Assembly (NCBI GenBank): GCA_963667035.1
Contig: OY762964.1
Location: 576,001 to 640,000 of the forward strand
DNA: 64,000 nt
Source of the DNA: Candidatus Cloacimonadales bacterium
Lineage (GTDB): Bacteria; Cloacimonadota; Cloacimonadia; Cloacimonadales; JAFGVF01
Reading direction: 5' to 3'
Positions 5,792 to 13,595 of this stretch are shown in pieces (the stretch's first letter is position 1; each line of letters begins with the position of its first letter). The notes under the pieces are model-generated. The model was not told the origin of the DNA. It did no database searches and worked only from the letters and a program-made list of their open reading frames with translations. Position numbers and translations under genes: made by a program.

Positions 5792-6144
5792 GATGTCTCC
5801 TTATTTATATCTTACTTATCTATCTTACTCATTAAAGACAATTTCAGCACAAATTATTTTGACCGTCCCATGTGTCAAGAACTTTAAATAAGTACTTCTC
5901 TCGAATACTATTAGAACTTTTCTGTCACTAATAGGACAATCCTATGACATTTAAGACAAAATATTATGTAGGATATATATTCACTACTATGTTTCAACTA
6001 TTTCTCTGTTAAATGAAACAAATTCATTATTGACGTCAAGAGTTTTTCCATTCAATTTCCATAGCTTTATCACTGAGCTCTATCATTCATAGTTTTTTAC
6101 TATGCCTTTATTCTGCAATAAACAATAGATTTCTCTTATTACTA

Positions 6145-7050
6145 CTAGAGTTTTTTAAATCCTGTACCTAATGTCTCGTGAACATCACTTATCGTTACAA
6201 AGGCTTTAGTATCTATATTTTTAAGGATGCTTTTAACTTTAGGAATTTCTCTTCTATTGATTACAGTATATACAATTTCTTTTTTGCTCTCACTAAATGA
6301 GCCCTTTCCATAGAATATAGTGCAACCTCGATGAAGTTCTGTCATTATTGATTTTCTTACGGGTGTAGATTTATCAGTAACAATCATTACTCCTTTAGAA
6401 TAAGAAAAGCCTTCTAATACTAGATCACATATTTTTGAGCTAACAACTAATGAAAGCAAACCCCAAAAAAATAAATTTGGATTCTTAAAAATTGTCCCTA
6501 TTACAAATATAATGAAAGTATCTATGATTAAATATGAGTTTCCTATAGTAAATCCAAAATACTTTCTCATCAGTAATGCAGGAATATCTGTTCCCCCAGT
6601 TGATCCGTTGAATTTTATAACCAAACCAAACCCAGCGCCGACTATAACAGAACCGGCCATTATAGCCAGAAAAGGTTCATTAGAAAGAGACCATGCTCTA
6701 TCATTGATTTTAAAAAGATAATCCCTTAGAAAAAATACCTTTATCATGTTTCTTGAGGAGAAAAAATCCGTAAAAAAAGTCAACGAAAACATTCCTACTA
6801 TTGTTTTAATTCCAAATTGTTTACCAAAAGCAATCAACCCAACAATAAACAGGGGAATATTTATCATTAACATACTTATCCCTGCTGGAAACTGAAATAA
6901 ATAATAAAAGATTTGAGCTATACCACCAACTCCACCTGGTGATGATTTATAAGGTATAAGAAACAGAGAAAAGCCGATTCCGCAAAGAATAGTTCCAATT
7001 ATAATGCCAATTGCATCTTTAATAAAACCAAAGTTAATTTTCACAAGCAC
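6145..7050 (-). CDS. YitT family membrane protein (DUF161/DUF2179)
   Basis: GGVGG, NIPLF, GSTGGTD motifs; C-terminal IDTKAFVTI; multiple hydrophobic helices. Confidence 0.88.
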   Translation of the reverse strand: MLVKINFGFIKDAIGIIIGTILCGIGFSLFLIPYKSSPGGVGGIAQIFYYLFQFPAGISMLMINIPLFIVGLIAFGKQFGIKTIVGMFSLTFFTDFFSSRNMIKVFFLRDYLFKINDRAWSLSNEPFLAIMAGSVIVGAGFGLVIKFNGSTGGTDIPALLMRKYFGFTIGNSYLIIDTFIIFVIGTIFKNPNLFFWGLLSLVVSSKICDLVLEGFSYSKGVMIVTDKSTPVRKSIMTELHRGCTIFYGKGSFSESKKEIVYTVINRREIPKVKSILKNIDTKAFVTISDVHETLGTGFKKL

Positions 7051-7137: not shown

Positions 7138-7323
7138 TCAAAGTTTATCAATCAACATCTGTTTTTGAGCTTTAGCTTTTTTCTCAGAATCAAACTTATA
7201 GGATAATATTTTGTTATCTTTCGTTACTACATCAAAAACATAAAGCCATCCTGTGTGATAAAAGACTTCATATATCTCTGAGACATTGACAATTTTTCCT
7301 ATATCTATGTTTTCAATCTTCAT
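7138..7323 (-). CDS. Small hypothetical protein, translationally coupled to the EamA gene
   Basis: 61 aa; ATG 7323-7321 overlaps the upstream TGA (ATGA). Confidence 0.65.
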   Translation of the reverse strand: MKIENIDIGKIVNVSEIYEVFYHTGWLYVFDVVTKDNKILSYKFDSEKKAKAQKQMLIDKL

Positions 7324-8234
7324 TGTTTATTCCTCACTGAAAGTCTTTTTTTTATCATAACTGTTTTTTTTACAATAGTCTCTATATTTATACCCATTAT
7401 GACTAATGCGATTCCCAAGAATTGACCAATATATATAGTCTCATGAAACATAATAAAAGCCAGTATTGAAACTATTACAGGTTTTAGAAAAAAGAGTATA
7501 GCTCCGGTAGTAGTTGGAACACTCTTCAATCCTTCAAAATATGAAAGATAAGCTAAACCAGAGACAAAAATCCCTAAGTAAACTATTGTAATTACATTAA
7601 ACCATGTAATCTCAAATGTAACATCTACTTTCGAGATTAATGCTATCATACCTAAAACTATGCTACCTATTATAAATGAGATAGTATTGGTAACGACATT
7701 ACCGTGTTTTTTTACATTCTTTTTTGAGAGTATAGTATATAGTCCAAATGAGAAAGAAGCTACACAACCGAATATAATCCCTAATAAAGGATTAAGAGCT
7801 TTACTTTCCTGGAAAGACTCATATCCAATAATTGTAATTACACCAATAATTCCAACTATGATTCCAATTATTTTAACAAATGATAAACTCTCTTTCAATA
7901 TGTATTTAGCTAGTATTGCTACAAACACAGGATTTGCACTTATAAGAATTGCACTTAATGATGCCTCTCCATAGTAAACAGCTAATTGTAAAGATAGCAT
8001 TGATATGACAATATTGATTATGCCAAGAAGAGATAAGGAGAACATATCTTTAAAACTGAGCGTTGCTTCCTTGTTTATTATTTTTTTTAAACAAAGAGGT
8101 AGCATTATGATACCTCCAAGCATAAATCTATAAATAGTAATTCCAATTGGAGAAATGCTATCTCCCAAAAGTTTGCTTGTTAACTCCAATGTAGAGAATA
8201 GGAACACAGCAACTAGAATAAATAAGTAACTCAT
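7320..8234 (-). CDS. EamA/DMT family transporter
   Basis: About 10 TM helices in two repeats, with YRFMLGG, ANPVFV, LKESL and FHETI motifs. Start moved to ATG 8234, which overlaps the upstream TAA (TAATG). Confidence 0.9.
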   Translation of the reverse strand: MSYLFILVAVFLFSTLELTSKLLGDSISPIGITIYRFMLGGIIMLPLCLKKIINKEATLSFKDMFSLSLLGIINIVISMLSLQLAVYYGEASLSAILISANPVFVAILAKYILKESLSFVKIIGIIVGIIGVITIIGYESFQESKALNPLLGIIFGCVASFSFGLYTILSKKNVKKHGNVVTNTISFIIGSIVLGMIALISKVDVTFEITWFNVITIVYLGIFVSGLAYLSYFEGLKSVPTTTGAILFFLKPVIVSILAFIMFHETIYIGQFLGIALVIMGINIETIVKKTVMIKKRLSVRNKQ

Positions 8235-10252
8235 TAACAATTCTCCAACTGATTTATAATCTTGTATATATCTGAAGGTAACTCAGCTATCATGCACCCT
8301 GCATTCTTGAGTATTTCTTTTTTATACTGTACTGTCGATTTCTCACTATTAATGATTGCACCTGCATGTCCCATTTTGGAACCTTTAGGAGCAGAATCTC
8401 CTGCAAAAAAAGCAATTAAAGGTTTTGTTTTGTTAATTGATTTTATCAGATTTGCTAATTTTTCTTCCTCCTCTCCACCACCTATCTCTCCTATATAGAC
8501 TATATAATCACTCTCTTTAGAATTTAATAGGAATGTAACTGTATCAATCACAGAGGTTCCTGATATTGGATCACCACCTAATCCGATAGCAGTTGAAACT
8601 CCTTTAGTATTATTACTGATCTCATTTGCAATTTCATAGAGTAGTGTTCCGCTTTTTGACATTATTGCAACATTTCCCTTTTTAAGAATCTTACCAGGAA
8701 TGATACCTAGATTCGCTTCATTTACTCGTATTATCCCAGGACAATTAGGTCCTATAATCCTAGCACCTTTTTCATACGCATAATGAACCATTTCCATAGT
8801 ATCATGAATAGGCACATGTTCTGTAATTATAACTATCAAATTTACTCCAGCGTCAATTGCTTCAATAGTTGCGGATTTTACATGAGGAGCGGGAACAAAC
8901 AATACAGTTGCATCAACATGAGTGTTTGCAGTAACTTCTTTTACTGAGTTATAAATTGTAACACCATGTATTGTTTCCCCTCCACGACCAGGAGTAACAC
9001 CAGCTACTATCTTAGTACCATATTCTAGCATTTTTTTTGCATGATATGAGCCATATTTCCCTGAAATGCCTTGCACAATTACTTTAGAATCTCTGGATAC
9101 AAAGAATTGAGAATCATGCTTTTGCGATATTTCTACTGCCTTGCGGGCTGCTCTTTCCATACTATTATAAGCAAAGATACCATTTTCTTTAAGCATTGAA
9201 ATTGCTATATCAGAATTGTTTCCCATCATTCTTATAATCATCGGTAGTGAGTTTATATTCGTAGAGCGATACTCTATAATTGCTTCAGCAATCTTGTCAC
9301 AAAATGTTATTCCTCCAAAAATATTTACGAAGATACAATTGATTTTACTATTAGAGTTTAACAGTTTAAGAGCGTTTAAAGTAATTTCTTTAGTTGCTCC
9401 ACCACCTAAATCCAAGAAATTAGCAGGTGTACCGTTAAATTTTTTTATCATATCCATTGAAGCCATTACTATACCTGCTCCACATCCCATTATCCCAATA
9501 CTTCCGTCTAGTTCAAGATAATGTGAACCGAAATGATTCGAACCATCAAAATACAATTGATTCATTGAAAGATTCTCTAGTTCGGCAAAAAGTTCTTCAT
9601 GTCTAAACTTTGCTGATTCATCTATATCTATAACACAATCAAGGCAAATTGGTGTATCTTCTTTATCAAATACAAATGGATTGATTTCTAAAAGAGTGGC
9701 ATCGATAGATAAGAATACTTGCTTTATCAATACTGCAAACTCAATAAATTTGTTTAACTTTTTTTTATTGGGGAAGAAACAAAATGTGTTATCCATTAAT
9801 TGTCTTTTAAACACTTCATTTTTTATACTTACTTGTAAAGTAATTATGCTTTCAGGATTATCTGATGCTACTTTTTCAATATCAACACCACCAAAAGGAG
9901 AGAAAATTGCAGTTAAGCTCTTCGAAGCTCTGTCAATTAACATACAAAAATAATACTCTTGCTCTATATTAATAGACTCTTCAACTAATATGCCTACAGA
10001 TCTTTCACCTTTAAACTCTTGGTTTATAATCCAATTACACATTTCTTCAAACTTTGATGTATCATCTAGTAATTGAACTAGATTTGCTTTACCTCTTCCT
10101 CCTGCTAGAACTTGACTCTTGAGTACTACTGGGAAACTAAAAGGGATTTTTGAATAATCAAACAGCTCCCCTTCTTTAAAGAAGTGATTTCGAGGAATAG
10201 TTAAATTGTGCTCTTCTAGAATTTTTTTTGATTGGAATTCATGAATCTTCAT
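8234..10252 (-). CDS. Fused succinyl-CoA synthetase-like protein (beta/SucC N-terminal + alpha/SucD C-terminal)
   Basis: SucC motifs (MKIHEFQSK, KSQVLAGGRGKA, EINP, PANFLDLGGG, NIFGG) followed in frame by SucD motifs (VIVQGISG, GVTPGRGG, ITEHVP, IIGPNCPG, SKSGTL, GEIGG, MGHAGA phospho-His). Confidence 0.92.
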   Translation of the reverse strand: MKIHEFQSKKILEEHNLTIPRNHFFKEGELFDYSKIPFSFPVVLKSQVLAGGRGKANLVQLLDDTSKFEEMCNWIINQEFKGERSVGILVEESINIEQEYYFCMLIDRASKSLTAIFSPFGGVDIEKVASDNPESIITLQVSIKNEVFKRQLMDNTFCFFPNKKKLNKFIEFAVLIKQVFLSIDATLLEINPFVFDKEDTPICLDCVIDIDESAKFRHEELFAELENLSMNQLYFDGSNHFGSHYLELDGSIGIMGCGAGIVMASMDMIKKFNGTPANFLDLGGGATKEITLNALKLLNSNSKINCIFVNIFGGITFCDKIAEAIIEYRSTNINSLPMIIRMMGNNSDIAISMLKENGIFAYNSMERAARKAVEISQKHDSQFFVSRDSKVIVQGISGKYGSYHAKKMLEYGTKIVAGVTPGRGGETIHGVTIYNSVKEVTANTHVDATVLFVPAPHVKSATIEAIDAGVNLIVIITEHVPIHDTMEMVHYAYEKGARIIGPNCPGIIRVNEANLGIIPGKILKKGNVAIMSKSGTLLYEIANEISNNTKGVSTAIGLGGDPISGTSVIDTVTFLLNSKESDYIVYIGEIGGGEEEEKLANLIKSINKTKPLIAFFAGDSAPKGSKMGHAGAIINSEKSTVQYKKEILKNAGCMIAELPSDIYKIINQLENC

Positions 10253-10258
10253 TATTAT

Positions 10259-10281
10259 CTCCTTAATTTCATATTAAGGAG
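10259..10281 (-). promoter_or_regulatory. SD-sequestering hairpin (riboswitch expression platform)
   Basis: Minus strand CTCCTTAAT-atgaa-ATTAAGGAG-ataata-ATG: a perfect 9-bp stem whose 3' arm contains the AAGGAG RBS of the SucCD fusion. Confidence 0.75.
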
Positions 10282-10387
10282 GGTTAGAGTAACCTATGTG
10301 AATAGTAATAGAGAAGTATTACCCCTTATCCACAAGCGTCATACACTTTCCCTCCGAAAGTAATTCCGTACAGATTTAAATCTGTAT

Positions 10388-10544
10388 GATACGGCATGTC
10401 TCCTGACTTGAAGTTTACCTCCGAGCTCCCTTCCCATCAGTTTAATGACAGTGGTATGAACTCTTTGTTCCTTCTTACAGTAGCGGGGGCTGTTCTCGAT
10501 TTTCACGAGATTCCATCTTAGCTCTTCATTAGAGAACCAGTATC
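10388..10544 (-). ncRNA. Cobalamin (B12) riboswitch
   Basis: Minus strand: GAUAC-UGGUUC...AAGAUGGAA-UCUCG-UGAAAAU-CGAGA-ACAGCCCCCGCUACUGUAA...CCACUG...GGGAAGG...AAGUCAGGAGACAUGCC-GUAUC. All canonical blocks are present, including the B12 box, with P1 GAUAC/GUAUC. Confidence 0.93.
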
Positions 10545-10656: not shown

Positions 10657-10943
10657 GTAATATGTGCTCACATATTACCAGATACGCAAGGATCCTGCTC
10701 GCTATAAGACATGCCGGTAAAATGCTAGCGTACCCCGGTTTGTAGTGCAAGTGCCCTCACTTGCACATAGCTCGAAGAGCTATATTTTTTGCATACTTTG
10801 TCAGCACAGCAATTCAGGGGAGTCGCAGTACATCATACGAGTTTGCGAGTACAACGCAAAGCGATTACACCATGTTCCGATTGGAGTCGAACTCCCACCG
10901 GTCGTTTGGACTTGAGCTATAGACTATTACCTGTAGAACATCC
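10657..10943 (-). ncRNA. Candidate structured non-coding RNA, family not recognised
   Basis: About 47% GC by hand count over 10681-10940, within AT-rich intergenic DNA. Several perfect hairpins; G-U wobbles favour the minus strand. No credible ORF. Confidence 0.5.
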
Positions 10944-11128
10944 TTTTATATATATTAGCTCACAAAATCCTCATTTTAGTCACAACATCCCCTTTTTTTT
11001 ACATTTTGCATCTTTCATTTAGCATTTTCTCTTAATTTCTAATTCATATTCCTCTCTCTGCTCTAAGCAGTAACAATTGCTTTTAAATCAATTCTAACTT
11101 ATTAATAAATTAGTAATTTCTTGATAAT

Positions 11129-11227
11129 TAACCCAAGGATTACCCAAGGATTACCCAAGTGTTTCACAAGTATTTCACAGGAATTACTGCAGGGAGATGA
11201 AGGAGAAGTAAAGAAGAAGTAAGCAGG
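11129..11227. repeat. 11-bp-period degenerate tandem repeat
   Basis: Units: taacccaagga/ttacccaagga/ttacccaagtg/tttcacaagta/tttcacaggaa/ttactgcaggg/agatgaaggag/aagtaaagaag/aagtaagcagg. Confidence 0.75.
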
Positions 11228-11297
11228 TCGTGCATATTTCTTGACATACATGTTTCAGGGGTATACTAGTCGGTAAGAAATAATACAGGATGTGAGT

Positions 11298-13595
11298 ATG
11301 AAGTATTCTATAGCCATTGTTTTTGTGATGTTAATGAGTTTTCTATTAGCCGGTGTTGGAGTGAGAATTATACCGGATAGATACGAAGAGTTAACTGAGG
11401 AATTGGAGAGAGGAGATGTTGATTCTCTCCGATTTGAAGAAATTAAAGAGATTATGAGGAAGGATTTCCCGAATACAAAGACTTCATTTGAACTTGTTAG
11501 TAATGAATTCTACTCTCTAATTAATCCTATCTGGACAAATGACTCTCTGAATGTATCAGTTCTATCAGGTATGCTTGAAAAGTATCCTCGGAATAACCGG
11601 AGAAGGACAATTTACCAATATTACCTCTATTCATTAGCAAATCTACATAGGAATGAAGCTATTATGGATGCTCTTAAAAACTTTCGAAGAGCATTTAAGG
11701 ACGATTATATTAGTTGGTATTTGAGTGCCAGATATTACAGCTCTTTGGAAATAGACTCTCTGAAAGCATTAAGCTATGCAGAGAAAGCATATTTAAAAAG
11801 CAGAAACTATCCAAAGCTTAAGTTCTATCCAAAAATGGAATGGGAGTTAGAGAAACGTTCAGCTCCTGTTAAATCAGCAACGTTATATGCGAATCTGCTC
11901 TTGAAGAACGGTAATGATAAAGCAGCTAAAAGAGTGCTTAATGAAATAATAAAGAATAACGAGCTCGGTATTGAAGATGAAGAAACACTAGCCTCCTGTT
12001 ACTATATATATGCAAAGTACTATGATAAGATTGGTAAGCCTAAGAAGTCGGCAGAACAATCAGTGAAGGCTCTTGTTGCAGGAGATTTACGAAACAGTTA
12101 TGCTCCTTTGGCAGATTCACTTTTGAGAAAAACAGAAGGTATGACTAACAGCACGAATGAAGAGGTACTCGTTAAAGCTAGGGAGTTGGCAAAATATAAA
12201 GGTGTAACATTCAAAGATGCTACTTCGGAATTGGGTTTGAGTGATGTCTCGGCTGGAAGGGTCGCTTTAGCCGATTACAATCTGGACGGCTATGTAGATA
12301 TATTGCTAGACAACGGTCATCTGTACAAAAACAATAAGGGAATAGGTATTGAAGATGTAACTTCGGAAGCATTCAATGGTAGCTTCTCTTCTGGTGGTTC
12401 TGTTTGGGCGGATATGGATAATGACGGTGATTATGATATTGTTACAAAAGATCCAGAAGCTGTTTGGCTGAATAACAATGGAGTGTTCTCAAAACCGGAA
12501 AAGGATAACGGACTAAGTGATAACGGTATTTCGACTGAGGGGCTTGGTGTCGGTGATGTGAATGGAGATGGCTTGCCTGATATATATTATGCAAATTATG
12601 AAATTTGGACCGGAAGTAACTCCGAACCGTTCGCTGATCAGTATTATCAAAATATTGGGAATGGTAGATTCAAAGAAATGACTGCCGAAGCCGGTCTTTT
12701 GCCAGAAGATGGAAAACCCAGAGCCGGTAGGGGAGTGAACTTCGGTGATTTCGATAACGATGGAGATTTGGATATCTATGTTTCAAATTATAGACTTCAA
12801 GATAATTTCCTATGGCAGAACGATGGAACAGGCCACTTTACGGAAGTTTCGGAACTAAAGGGAGTGAAAGGAGATAAGGTCGACAATTGGTATGGTCATA
12901 CTATCGGTTCACAATGGGGAGATATTGATAATGACGGTGATTTGGATTTGATATGTGCTAATTTAGCTCATCCTCGTTATATAGATTTCTCTAACAAAAC
13001 AAGGGTATACATTAATAGCGGAGCTCCCGATTACACTTTCACGGATAGAAGAAAAGAGAAAGGTATTGTATACGAAGAAACTCACTCGGAACCTTTACTA
13101 GCTGATTTTGATAACAATGGCTATCTTGACCTGTATTTAACTTCTGTTTATGATGGAAGACGTTCATTCCTATACATGCAACAAGAAAACGGTACATATA
13201 TTGATAATGCTTATTTAGCCGGAGTGAGACATTTCAACGGATGGGGAAGTGCTTCAGCCGATTTTAACAATGACGGGAAAATGGATTTTATTGTTTGCGG
13301 AGGAAAGATTCAACTCTTTATCAATACTACCGAGATAAAGAATAATTGGTTAGAGATTGATGTTAAGCCAGGAGCTGAGAGAAATGTTATAGGAACCCGA
13401 ATATTATTTAAAGGCAAGCATGGTACTTATACAAGAGAAATTGAAGGTGGAAAAGGGACAACAAATCAGAGTAGTCTGGTCCAACATATCGGTTTAGGAA
13501 AAGAGAAGAAGGGAGAGTTGGTAATAACCTATCCCGACGGGCAGGTTGTGAAGAGGCAGATTGAAAAAGTTAATAGAAGAGTTGAGATAGAATAA
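11298..13595 (+). CDS. Secreted TPR-like + FG-GAP/VCBS repeat + ASPIC/UnbV (CRTAC1-like) protein
   Basis: Signal peptide, helical N-terminal half, repeated DxDNDGDxD motifs, C-terminal NNWLEI...QHIGLG...ITYPDG. Confidence 0.85.
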   Translation: MKYSIAIVFVMLMSFLLAGVGVRIIPDRYEELTEELERGDVDSLRFEEIKEIMRKDFPNTKTSFELVSNEFYSLINPIWTNDSLNVSVLSGMLEKYPRNNRRRTIYQYYLYSLANLHRNEAIMDALKNFRRAFKDDYISWYLSARYYSSLEIDSLKALSYAEKAYLKSRNYPKLKFYPKMEWELEKRSAPVKSATLYANLLLKNGNDKAAKRVLNEIIKNNELGIEDEETLASCYYIYAKYYDKIGKPKKSAEQSVKALVAGDLRNSYAPLADSLLRKTEGMTNSTNEEVLVKARELAKYKGVTFKDATSELGLSDVSAGRVALADYNLDGYVDILLDNGHLYKNNKGIGIEDVTSEAFNGSFSSGGSVWADMDNDGDYDIVTKDPEAVWLNNNGVFSKPEKDNGLSDNGISTEGLGVGDVNGDGLPDIYYANYEIWTGSNSEPFADQYYQNIGNGRFKEMTAEAGLLPEDGKPRAGRGVNFGDFDNDGDLDIYVSNYRLQDNFLWQNDGTGHFTEVSELKGVKGDKVDNWYGHTIGSQWGDIDNDGDLDLICANLAHPRYIDFSNKTRVYINSGAPDYTFTDRRKEKGIVYEETHSEPLLADFDNNGYLDLYLTSVYDGRRSFLYMQQENGTYIDNAYLAGVRHFNGWGSASADFNNDGKMDFIVCGGKIQLFINTTEIKNNWLEIDVKPGAERNVIGTRILFKGKHGTYTREIEGGKGTTNQSSLVQHIGLGKEKKGELVITYPDGQVVKRQIEKVNRRVEIE

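Follow-up and report, generated by a model that had tools for sequence, protein, structure and literature searches.

What would a succinyl-CoA synthetase gain from being placed under a cobalamin (vitamin B12) riboswitch, and in which direction would carbon then pass through it? The question is raised by an operon in 64,000 nucleotides of DNA from Candidatus Cloacimonadales bacterium (assembly GCA_963667035.1, contig OY762964.1, positions 576,001 to 640,000). This whole stretch is hereafter called the window, and positions are those within it unless a contig is named. The genome to which it belongs, G000, is a single contig of 3.1 Mb that is 98% complete. In the operon, a cobalamin aptamer precedes a gene for a fused SucC-SucD chain, which is followed by genes for an EamA-type transporter, a 61-residue orphan protein and a YitT/DUF2179 membrane protein. 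We consider it probable that this cassette provides a B12-repressed way around methylmalonyl-CoA mutase; the direction of flux, addressed further below, can be proposed with considerably less confidence.

The riboswitch-led operon

The match to the cobalamin riboswitch family RF00174 (Table 1) is to be set against a gathering score of 31.5 bits, and is the sole Rfam match across the whole window. An original prediction, made from the sequence letters of the window, had placed a full cobalamin riboswitch at 10388-10544 on the reverse strand; the strong full-length match bears this out and extends the aptamer by about 25 nt. The aptamer, which ends at 10376, lies immediately 5′ of the first codon of sucCD (ATG at 10252) on the same strand. 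The same arrangement is found at two homologous loci, L044 in genome G141 and L045 in genome G102, with whose riboswitches the window aptamer can be aligned. A string resembling the T-arm of a tRNA lies 5′ of the riboswitch, for which a tRNA search gave no call.

The overlapping codons by which three genes had been said to be joined under the riboswitch are both present in the sequence. At the TAATG junction (...GTTAATGAG...), the SucCD stop codon TAA overlaps an in-frame ATG at 8234, while at the ATGA junction (...ACAATGAAG...) the EamA stop codon TGA lies within the ATG of the small open reading frame (ORF). The operon had been taken to end at 7138, but the YitT/DUF2179 gene at 6145-7050 on the same strand also belongs to it: no terminator-like site was found in the 87-nt gap between the small ORF and this gene, and in both homologous loci the YitT gene adjoins or overlaps the gene that precedes it.

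Table 1. Features of the riboswitch leader and operon, in window coordinates.
Feature	Position	Strand	Evidence
Cobalamin riboswitch aptamer, RF00174	10376..10557	(-)	Rfam: 107.6 bits, E 5.4e-26, model positions 1-189/189
Hairpin CTTTC-GGAGG-GAAAG of the expression platform, candidate P13/L13	10346..10360	(-)	Sequence and minimum-free-energy fold
Anti-Shine-Dalgarno segment CCCTCCTTAAT	10273..10283	(-)	Paired with the Shine-Dalgarno sequence in minimum-free-energy and centroid folds
Shine-Dalgarno sequence ATTAAGGAG	10259..10267	(-)	6 nt 5′ of the ATG at 10252
Fused SucC-SucD, ADP-forming succinate-CoA ligase, 672 aa	8234..10252	(-)	Domains, equivalog models, structure matches
EamA (drug/metabolite transporter, DMT, superfamily) transporter, 306-aa ORF	7320..8240, likely start ATG 8234	(-)	Two EamA domains, E 1.6e-46 (PF00892, 158.4 bits, two stretches in about 300 aa)
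Orphan protein, 61 aa, ATGA-coupled to EamA	7138..7323	(-)	No family match
YitT_membrane + DUF2179 membrane protein, 301 aa, last cassette gene	6145..7050	(-)	PF02588, 178.3 bits (residues 14-236), then PF10035, 74.6 bits (241-295, C-terminal)

As the EamA protein reaches a score of only 118 against the cut-off of 230 for TIGR00950, no equivalog can be assigned to it. The small ORF matched nothing but itself in a word-based search and has no counterpart in L045. However, a 65-aa ORF at the equivalent position in L044 shares 33% identity with it over 43 aa (pairwise E 3e-9), and a profile built from the two sequences retrieved, from 1.84 billion representative proteins, themselves and one 90-aa relative (E 3.3e-4). 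These results indicate a real but lineage-restricted gene. Its AlphaFold model, with a mean pLDDT of 58.5, is of too low a quality for a structure search.

Predicted translational control

The leader between the aptamer and the first codon suggests how the riboswitch may act. A 16-nt block (CTTTCGGAGGGAAAGT) that is identical in all three leaders folds as a hairpin with a GGAGG loop, which may take the part of L13. When the expression platform is folded by itself, the Shine-Dalgarno (SD) sequence pairs with the anti-SD segment in both the minimum-free-energy and the centroid folds (z = -3.08). The pair is preserved in all three leaders, the anti-SD segments of the two relatives (CCCTTCTTAAT and CCCTCCTTGAT) differing from that of the window by single transitions. 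The GGAGGG of the hairpin (10351-10356) is complementary to the CCCTCC of the anti-SD, and partly complementary to the C-rich L5 loop of the aptamer (GCCCCCGC), which is invariant in the three cassette aptamers.

These complementarities point to an OFF-type switch in this organism. With ligand bound, the hairpin loop would be captured by the aptamer and the SD kept sequestered; with the ligand absent, the GGAGGG would take the anti-SD CCCTCC and free the SD, and the operon would probably be translated. A look-up of RNA runs covering this locus found none.

Identity of the fused ligase

The N-terminal half of the fusion carries ATP-grasp_2 (PF08442, residues 2-194) and Ligase_CoA domains, and the C-terminal half CoA_binding (PF02629, 387-479) and Ligase_CoA, with PF00549 matched in two stretches overall. 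Of the NCBIfam equivalog models, that for SucD (NF004230, cut-off 336) gives 343.2 and is passed, and TIGR01019 falls just short at 346.6, its cut-off being 353.2. The malate-CoA ligase model scores 229 against 604. For both halves, the closest solved structures are subunits of succinyl-CoA synthetases (2yv1_A, 2.1e-89; 3ufx_B, 4.3e-64), the top structures for the alpha half (8234-9103) being 2yv1_A at 303.8 bits and 2yv2_A at 298.3 bits.

Close homologues of the fusion form a clade of seven 90%-identity clusters in a collection of 5.8 billion clusters, and its named members are all Cloacimonadota according to their source names. The motif M627-G-H629-A-G-A is invariant in all seven clade members and aligns with MGHAGAI of 2yv1_A; we take its histidine to be the phosphorylated residue. 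Likewise invariant within the clade are the stretches ANFLDxGGGA and NIFGGI, which presumably have a role in succinate binding.

Rather than two separate subunits, the window encodes a single 672-aa ORF with no internal stop; split SucC and SucD, with a stop between the halves, occur in other genomes of the phylum. Identity between the clade and the other SucC and SucD sequences found is only approximately 35-49%. Split SucD proteins from within the phylum share 43-49% identity with the alpha half of the fusion which, together with the structure matches, suggests that the fused gene did not arise recently from sucC and sucD of this phylum.

Cobamide and succinyl-CoA metabolism in the genome

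Neither CobS nor CbiC was found in G000, so that the organism has to import its cobamides in complete form. In all, the genome carries three cobalamin riboswitches. One of the other two (G000:C1:26980-27157, 110.3 bits) heads a 728-aa protein in which only C-terminal type-IX secretion sorting domains were matched, and which may serve to capture cobamides at the cell surface; 3′ of it lies a DDE transposase. At the third locus (G000:C1:2289430-2293900), the riboswitch heads genes for a BtuD-like ABC ATPase, for a TonB-dependent receptor of the BtuB kind that matches TonB-B12 weakly, and for another protein that ends in a type-IX sorting tail. A BtuC-like permease and a BtuF-like binding protein are found 370 kb away beside rnf genes, without a riboswitch.

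Methylmalonyl-CoA mutase, around which the proposed bypass would lead, is a two-subunit enzyme in every genome with the cassette: G000, G141 and G102 have two MM_CoA_mutase genes apiece, and one of the G000 copies carries a B12-binding domain. Other B12-binding proteins of G000 are lysine 5,6-aminomutase and three B12-radical-SAM proteins; no MetH-type domain was found in this genome.

The fused ligase had originally been described as a dedicated enzyme. A second, ordinary sucCD was looked for in G000 and none was found, the fusion being the sole SucD homologue, and it is thus not an extra ligase beside a housekeeping one. The genome encodes 2-oxoglutarate:ferredoxin oxidoreductase (Kor, korDABC), with methylmalonyl-CoA epimerase directly after. 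Kor can supply succinyl-CoA without B12, whereas the only other succinyl-CoA-interconverting enzyme found, the mutase, needs it. No succinate dehydrogenase was found in G000, where the sole Succ_DH_flav_C match is NadB (NF006567, 631.6 against a cut-off of 629), and citrate synthase was found in none of five genomes.

This inventory agrees with a preprint on digester Cloacimonadota (10.1101/2025.11.11.687785), which reports them to be without succinyl-CoA synthetase, succinate dehydrogenase and malate dehydrogenase, and links succinyl-CoA to 2-oxoglutarate through Kor, encoded beside the epimerase. The phylum is proposed there to oxidise propionate through the mutase and Kor, and amino-acid fermentation and the uptake of glutamate are ascribed to these organisms (10.1101/2025.11.11.687785; PMC12590816). 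The words B12 and cobalamin occur in the main text of neither source.

Distribution and insertion of the cassette

Among 232 genomes of the phylum, only two were found to have a close uninterrupted homologue of the fusion, namely G141 at 68% identity and G102 at 55%. In each, RF00174 is matched directly upstream (115.1 and 120.9 bits, respectively), so that the pairing of riboswitch and ligase in the window recurs in both homologous operons. Downstream of the ligase, both loci encode EamA (58% identity in L044, 47% in L045) and then, as the last gene, YitT/DUF2179 (70% and 57%). The EamA and YitT genes overlap in G102, and in G141 the 65-aa ORF lies between them. The two carriers thus accompany the ligase in all three cassettes, while the flanking genes are different at all three loci.

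Comparison with relatives shows the cassette to be an accessory insertion. The family is represented by 11 other genomes, three of them from the same genus, and SucCD was matched in none at E <= 1e-30. G113, a genome of the same genus, is syntenic with the window at the DNA level (86% identity) through fabH-plsX-rpmF as far as about position 5923, where the synteny breaks off, and no DNA counterpart of the cassette was found in five relatives. In G113, the gene beside rpmF encodes a secreted protein with a type-IX sorting tail.

Controls outside the clade gave no further riboswitch-led sucCD. A search of genome contigs for more clade loci returned only the G141 contig again. A metagenome search yielded 80 loci. 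Their identity did not exceed 47%, the cassette was absent from all of them, and no EamA or YitT homologue was found at E <= 1e-5 in any. In Rfam scans, RF00174 was found at none of 15 distant fused homologue loci (approximately 35-38% identity) and at none of 58 further metagenomic sucCD loci, the seven of the 80 with less than 350 nt of sequence 5′ of the gene having been left out. Among 30 loci of the phylum, a riboswitch profile derived from five Cloacimonadota aptamers matched the three cassette loci and no others. Among the loci scanned, a riboswitch at sucCD is therefore specific to this clade. At the metagenomic control locus L081, a group II intron domain (81-153) lies just 5′ of sucC, and control loci L077 and L083 have Acido-Lenti-1 RNA motifs.

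Upstream of the riboswitch, a 734-nt non-coding stretch reaches to an FG-GAP gene and contains two dispersed repeat families (10735-10842 and 11035-11228), which mark the upstream edge of the insertion. They are present in 27 and 9 copies in G000 and give approximately 100 matches in G113, some in arrays about 190-220 nt apart; the two families often stand side by side, resembling a small composite mobile or REP-like element. The divergent gene beyond them (11292-13595, forward strand) encodes a 767-aa FG-GAP/ASPIC-UnbV repeat protein that is 68% identical to a protein of genome G112; a homologue adjoining rpmF was not found in G113.

Direction of carbon flow and alternative explanations

The B12-starvation bypass that had originally been proposed fits the riboswitch, the presence of the mutase and the conserved cassette. 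It has to be modified in that the idea is not new, the ligase is not additional and the operon includes a YitT/DUF2179 gene. As we now see it, glutamate and 2-oxoglutarate would be joined through Kor to succinyl-CoA, and this through the B12-dependent mutase to methylmalonyl-CoA and propionyl-CoA, in one linear route that may be travelled either way. Without B12, the mutase would stand idle and succinyl-CoA arriving from 2-oxoglutarate would have no exit. The fused ligase would then convert it to succinate, CoA and ATP, the succinate would be exported by the co-translated EamA and/or YitT carriers, and under B12 shortage fermentation would end in succinate instead of propionate.

That the carriers travel with the ligase would follow from the lack of any other succinate enzyme in the genome, since succinate would then have to cross the membrane. 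The outward direction is tentatively favoured, at somewhat less than an even chance, because Kor supplies succinyl-CoA without B12, ATP is gained, CoA is freed and carriers of the EamA type are mostly exporters, as is the case for the characterised members of the EamA/DME (drug/metabolite exporter) family. Succinate as the substrate or product, the direction of flux and the cargo of both membrane proteins are all inferred. A bolder version, in which the cassette would be a self-contained, horizontally moving module for succinate overflow under B12 starvation, with an ATP-yielding fused ligase and its own succinate exporters, appears unlikely on present evidence.

Several observations weigh against an outward succinate route. 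The ligase reaction is reversible, and some DMT carriers are importers. To our knowledge, the YitT/DUF2179 family has no known function, and a literature search on YitT gave unrelated papers only. The paralogues of both carriers in G000 sit in uninformative contexts: the second YitT/DUF2179 protein (53% identity, G000:C1:3037544-3038359) is encoded beside an IS200-like transposase and a ChaN-like gene, and the second EamA protein (42% identity, G000:C1:1738115-1738921) beside an HflX-like GTPase. Cassette-free relatives in the family (none of the 11 having the cassette) possess the same mutase, Kor and DapD. Although it favours the outward route that the acetyl-CoA hydrolase/transferase family was found above cut-off in none of five genomes, the search among CoA-transferases was confined to this family, and acetate CoA-transferase KEGG Orthology entries have been reported in the phylum (10.1101/2025.11.11.687785). 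The SucC half of the fusion remains under its equivalog cut-offs (NF001913, 329.9 against 370; TIGR01016, 319.8 against 375.55). Finally, the DNA-level comparison covers three independent loci, with clade clusters P0003, P0004, P0006 and P0007 outside it; a YitT protein (P0156) whose contig matches that of P0003 in length (30914) hints at a possible fourth cassette.

The same cassette and OFF switch could also serve the opposite flux, which we regard as doubtful but as the foremost alternative, and which of all the readings stands nearest to the original proposal. EamA and/or YitT would import succinate, and the ligase would spend ATP to make the succinyl-CoA that the mutase, lacking B12, could not make from propionyl-CoA. 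DapD would use this succinyl-CoA for diaminopimelate and lysine, which are needed in the cell wall, and Kor, working as a reductive carboxylase, would provide 2-oxoglutarate and glutamate from it. On the N-succinyltransferase equivalog model DapD scores 299.6, above the cut-off of 204, and all five genomes have a DapD-like gene; this biosynthetic need for succinyl-CoA fits the inward direction equally well and so also counts against the outward one. With no citrate synthase in these genomes, 2-oxoglutarate must derive from amino acids or from succinyl-CoA. Moreover, no fumarate reductase was found, so that any succinate used would need to be imported, which would explain the carriers. The mutase was framed as an alternative source of succinyl-CoA by Swithers et al. 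(2012; PMC3509894), and the propionate oxidation proposed for the phylum (10.1101/2025.11.11.687785) likewise runs through the mutase and Kor. However, the inward route costs ATP, Kor already makes succinyl-CoA from 2-oxoglutarate without B12 in organisms that are described as glutamate-importing amino-acid fermenters, and the 11 cassette-free family members share DapD and thus the same need.

It is improbable that the substrate of the ligase is an acid other than succinate, such as malate, itaconate or glutarate, which the carriers would move and which, as its CoA ester, would feed or drain a different B12-linked route. The sub-threshold scores of the SucC half, the narrow miss of TIGR01019, the low identity of the clade to other SucC and SucD proteins and the B12-dependent lysine 5,6-aminomutase of G000 would all be in keeping with such a substrate. 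Against this, the SucD equivalog is passed and the malate-CoA ligase model falls far below its cut-off, the best structure matches of both halves are all succinyl-CoA synthetases, ANFLDxGGGA and NIFGGI are invariant in the clade, and the published cases of riboswitch-led sucCD are annotated likewise.

Still harder to credit is the suggestion that EamA and/or YitT are inner-membrane carriers of cobamides or their precursors that merely share an operon with a bypass enzyme. No class of genes is commoner in cobalamin regulons than transporters (PMC3766115), and in G000 both of the other riboswitches precede genes of the uptake type. Yet BtuC-like and BtuF-like genes and riboswitch-controlled BtuD-like and BtuB-like genes are already present elsewhere in the genome, and the two carriers stay with the ligase in every cassette, coupled by overlapping codons. 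The movement of a cobamide precursor by EamA, one of two cargoes originally considered for it, is unlikely, as precursors would be useless to an organism without CobS and CbiC.

Activating (ON) corrinoid riboswitches exist (PMC10653944) and the ligase follows the mutase in the textbook pathway, but there is very little to recommend an ON switch that would have the ligase made together with an active mutase to complete the classical methylmalonyl-CoA route (succinyl-CoA to succinate and ATP), given that the default fold of the platform sequesters the SD, that the GGAGGG able to free it lies in a hairpin expected to be captured upon ligand binding (the usual OFF logic), that B12 represses riboswitch-led sucCD in Thermosipho (PMC3509894) and that without succinate dehydrogenase the classical route could not continue.

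If B12-repressed succinate export is indeed the function of the cassette, a lineage otherwise without succinate metabolism could make succinate the end product of its amino-acid fermentation once cobamides were exhausted, and succinate would be the first transport substrate for a member of the YitT/DUF2179 family and for this branch of EamA. Cloacimonadota are abundant in anaerobic digesters and have been linked to propionate turnover (10.1101/2025.11.11.687785); cobamide supply would be predicted to set their succinate/propionate balance there. More generally, the locus predicts that in uncultured Cloacimonadota the availability of cobamides decides whether carbon passes via the mutase or via succinate. 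It thereby offers a handle on B12-dependent carbon flow, and a concrete candidate substrate for a YitT/DUF2179 protein.

Comparison with known systems

The original prediction did not know succinyl-CoA synthetase as a member of the B12 regulon, but the association is already on record. Swithers et al. (2012; PMC3509894) attributed the link between B12 riboswitches and sucCD to Rodionov et al. (2003), and in Thermosipho africanus H1760334 found transcripts of sucC to be 4.1-fold and those of sucD 9.8-fold lower with cobalamin. Sun et al. (2013; PMC3766115) listed cobalamin riboswitches in Table S1 with sucCD in four genomes (as 'sucCD', as 'sucCD-Tmel_1872' in Thermosipho melanesiensis, as 'sucCD-TM0177' in Fervidobacterium nodosum and as 'THA_169-sucCD-Clos_0625' in Clostridium sp. 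OhILAs), these cases belonging to Thermotogae, Thermotoga lettingae among them, and to the Clostridium; sucCD does not appear in their main text, nor in any of the four functional categories of supplementary file 5. B12 control of succinyl-CoA synthetase is thus a little-discussed corner of the cobalamin regulon, which has been listed in tables and measured once but never functionally categorised. It is a known principle, and the bypass reading is reasonable but not new.

With the Thermotogales and Clostridium sp. OhILAs, the present locus shares a riboswitch directly before the succinyl-CoA synthetase genes, a patchy distribution that looks like horizontal acquisition (the Thermotogales cluster is patchy and apparently transferred; PMC3509894), a B12-dependent methylmalonyl-CoA mutase in the same genomes and additional uncharacterised genes in the operon. 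It differs in that sucC and sucD are separate there, whereas here they form one 672-aa chain in another phylum, and no Thermotogae or Alkaliphilus protein is among the best 120 matches of the fusion. In addition, the ligase is here coupled to EamA and YitT carriers and a 61-aa orphan; the extra genes listed for the published operons are Tmel_1872, TM0177, THA_169 and Clos_0625. New features are therefore the occurrence in this phylum, the joining of both subunits in one chain, the link to EamA, to YitT/DUF2179 and to a small orphan, and a very clean genomic setting, namely a cobamide auxotroph that has the mutase and no other succinate enzyme.

Canonical heterodimeric SucCD (PDB 2scu, 3ufx, 2yv1) has the same domain order within each half and the same MGHAGA motif. 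Here, however, beta and alpha subunits are fused, the enzyme is not part of a tricarboxylic acid cycle, and it is under the control of a cofactor.

The riboswitch itself resembles those of the btuB/env8 type, in which L5 and L13 form a kissing loop (PMC9600662). Common to both are a class-I-like full aptamer with a P6 extension, translational control through pairing of the SD (here predicted) and, in the stretch from aptamer to SD, a conserved hairpin with a G-rich loop that may meet the C-rich L5. Unlike in the btuB/env8 type, the SD lies outside the candidate P13 stem, approximately 80 nt further on and in a hairpin of its own. Such an arrangement would need a relay, in which GGAGGG and the SD would compete for the anti-SD CCCUCC.

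In its regulatory logic, the operon resembles MetE and NrdAB/NrdDG under cobalamin riboswitches, where the availability of B12 turns off a gene whose product allows a B12-dependent step to be bypassed, and for which 'isozymes of B12-dependent enzymes' form a category in supplementary file 5 of PMC3766115. Unlike these enzymes, SucCD is not an isozyme of the mutase whose step it would make dispensable, but gives the same metabolite pool another entry or exit.

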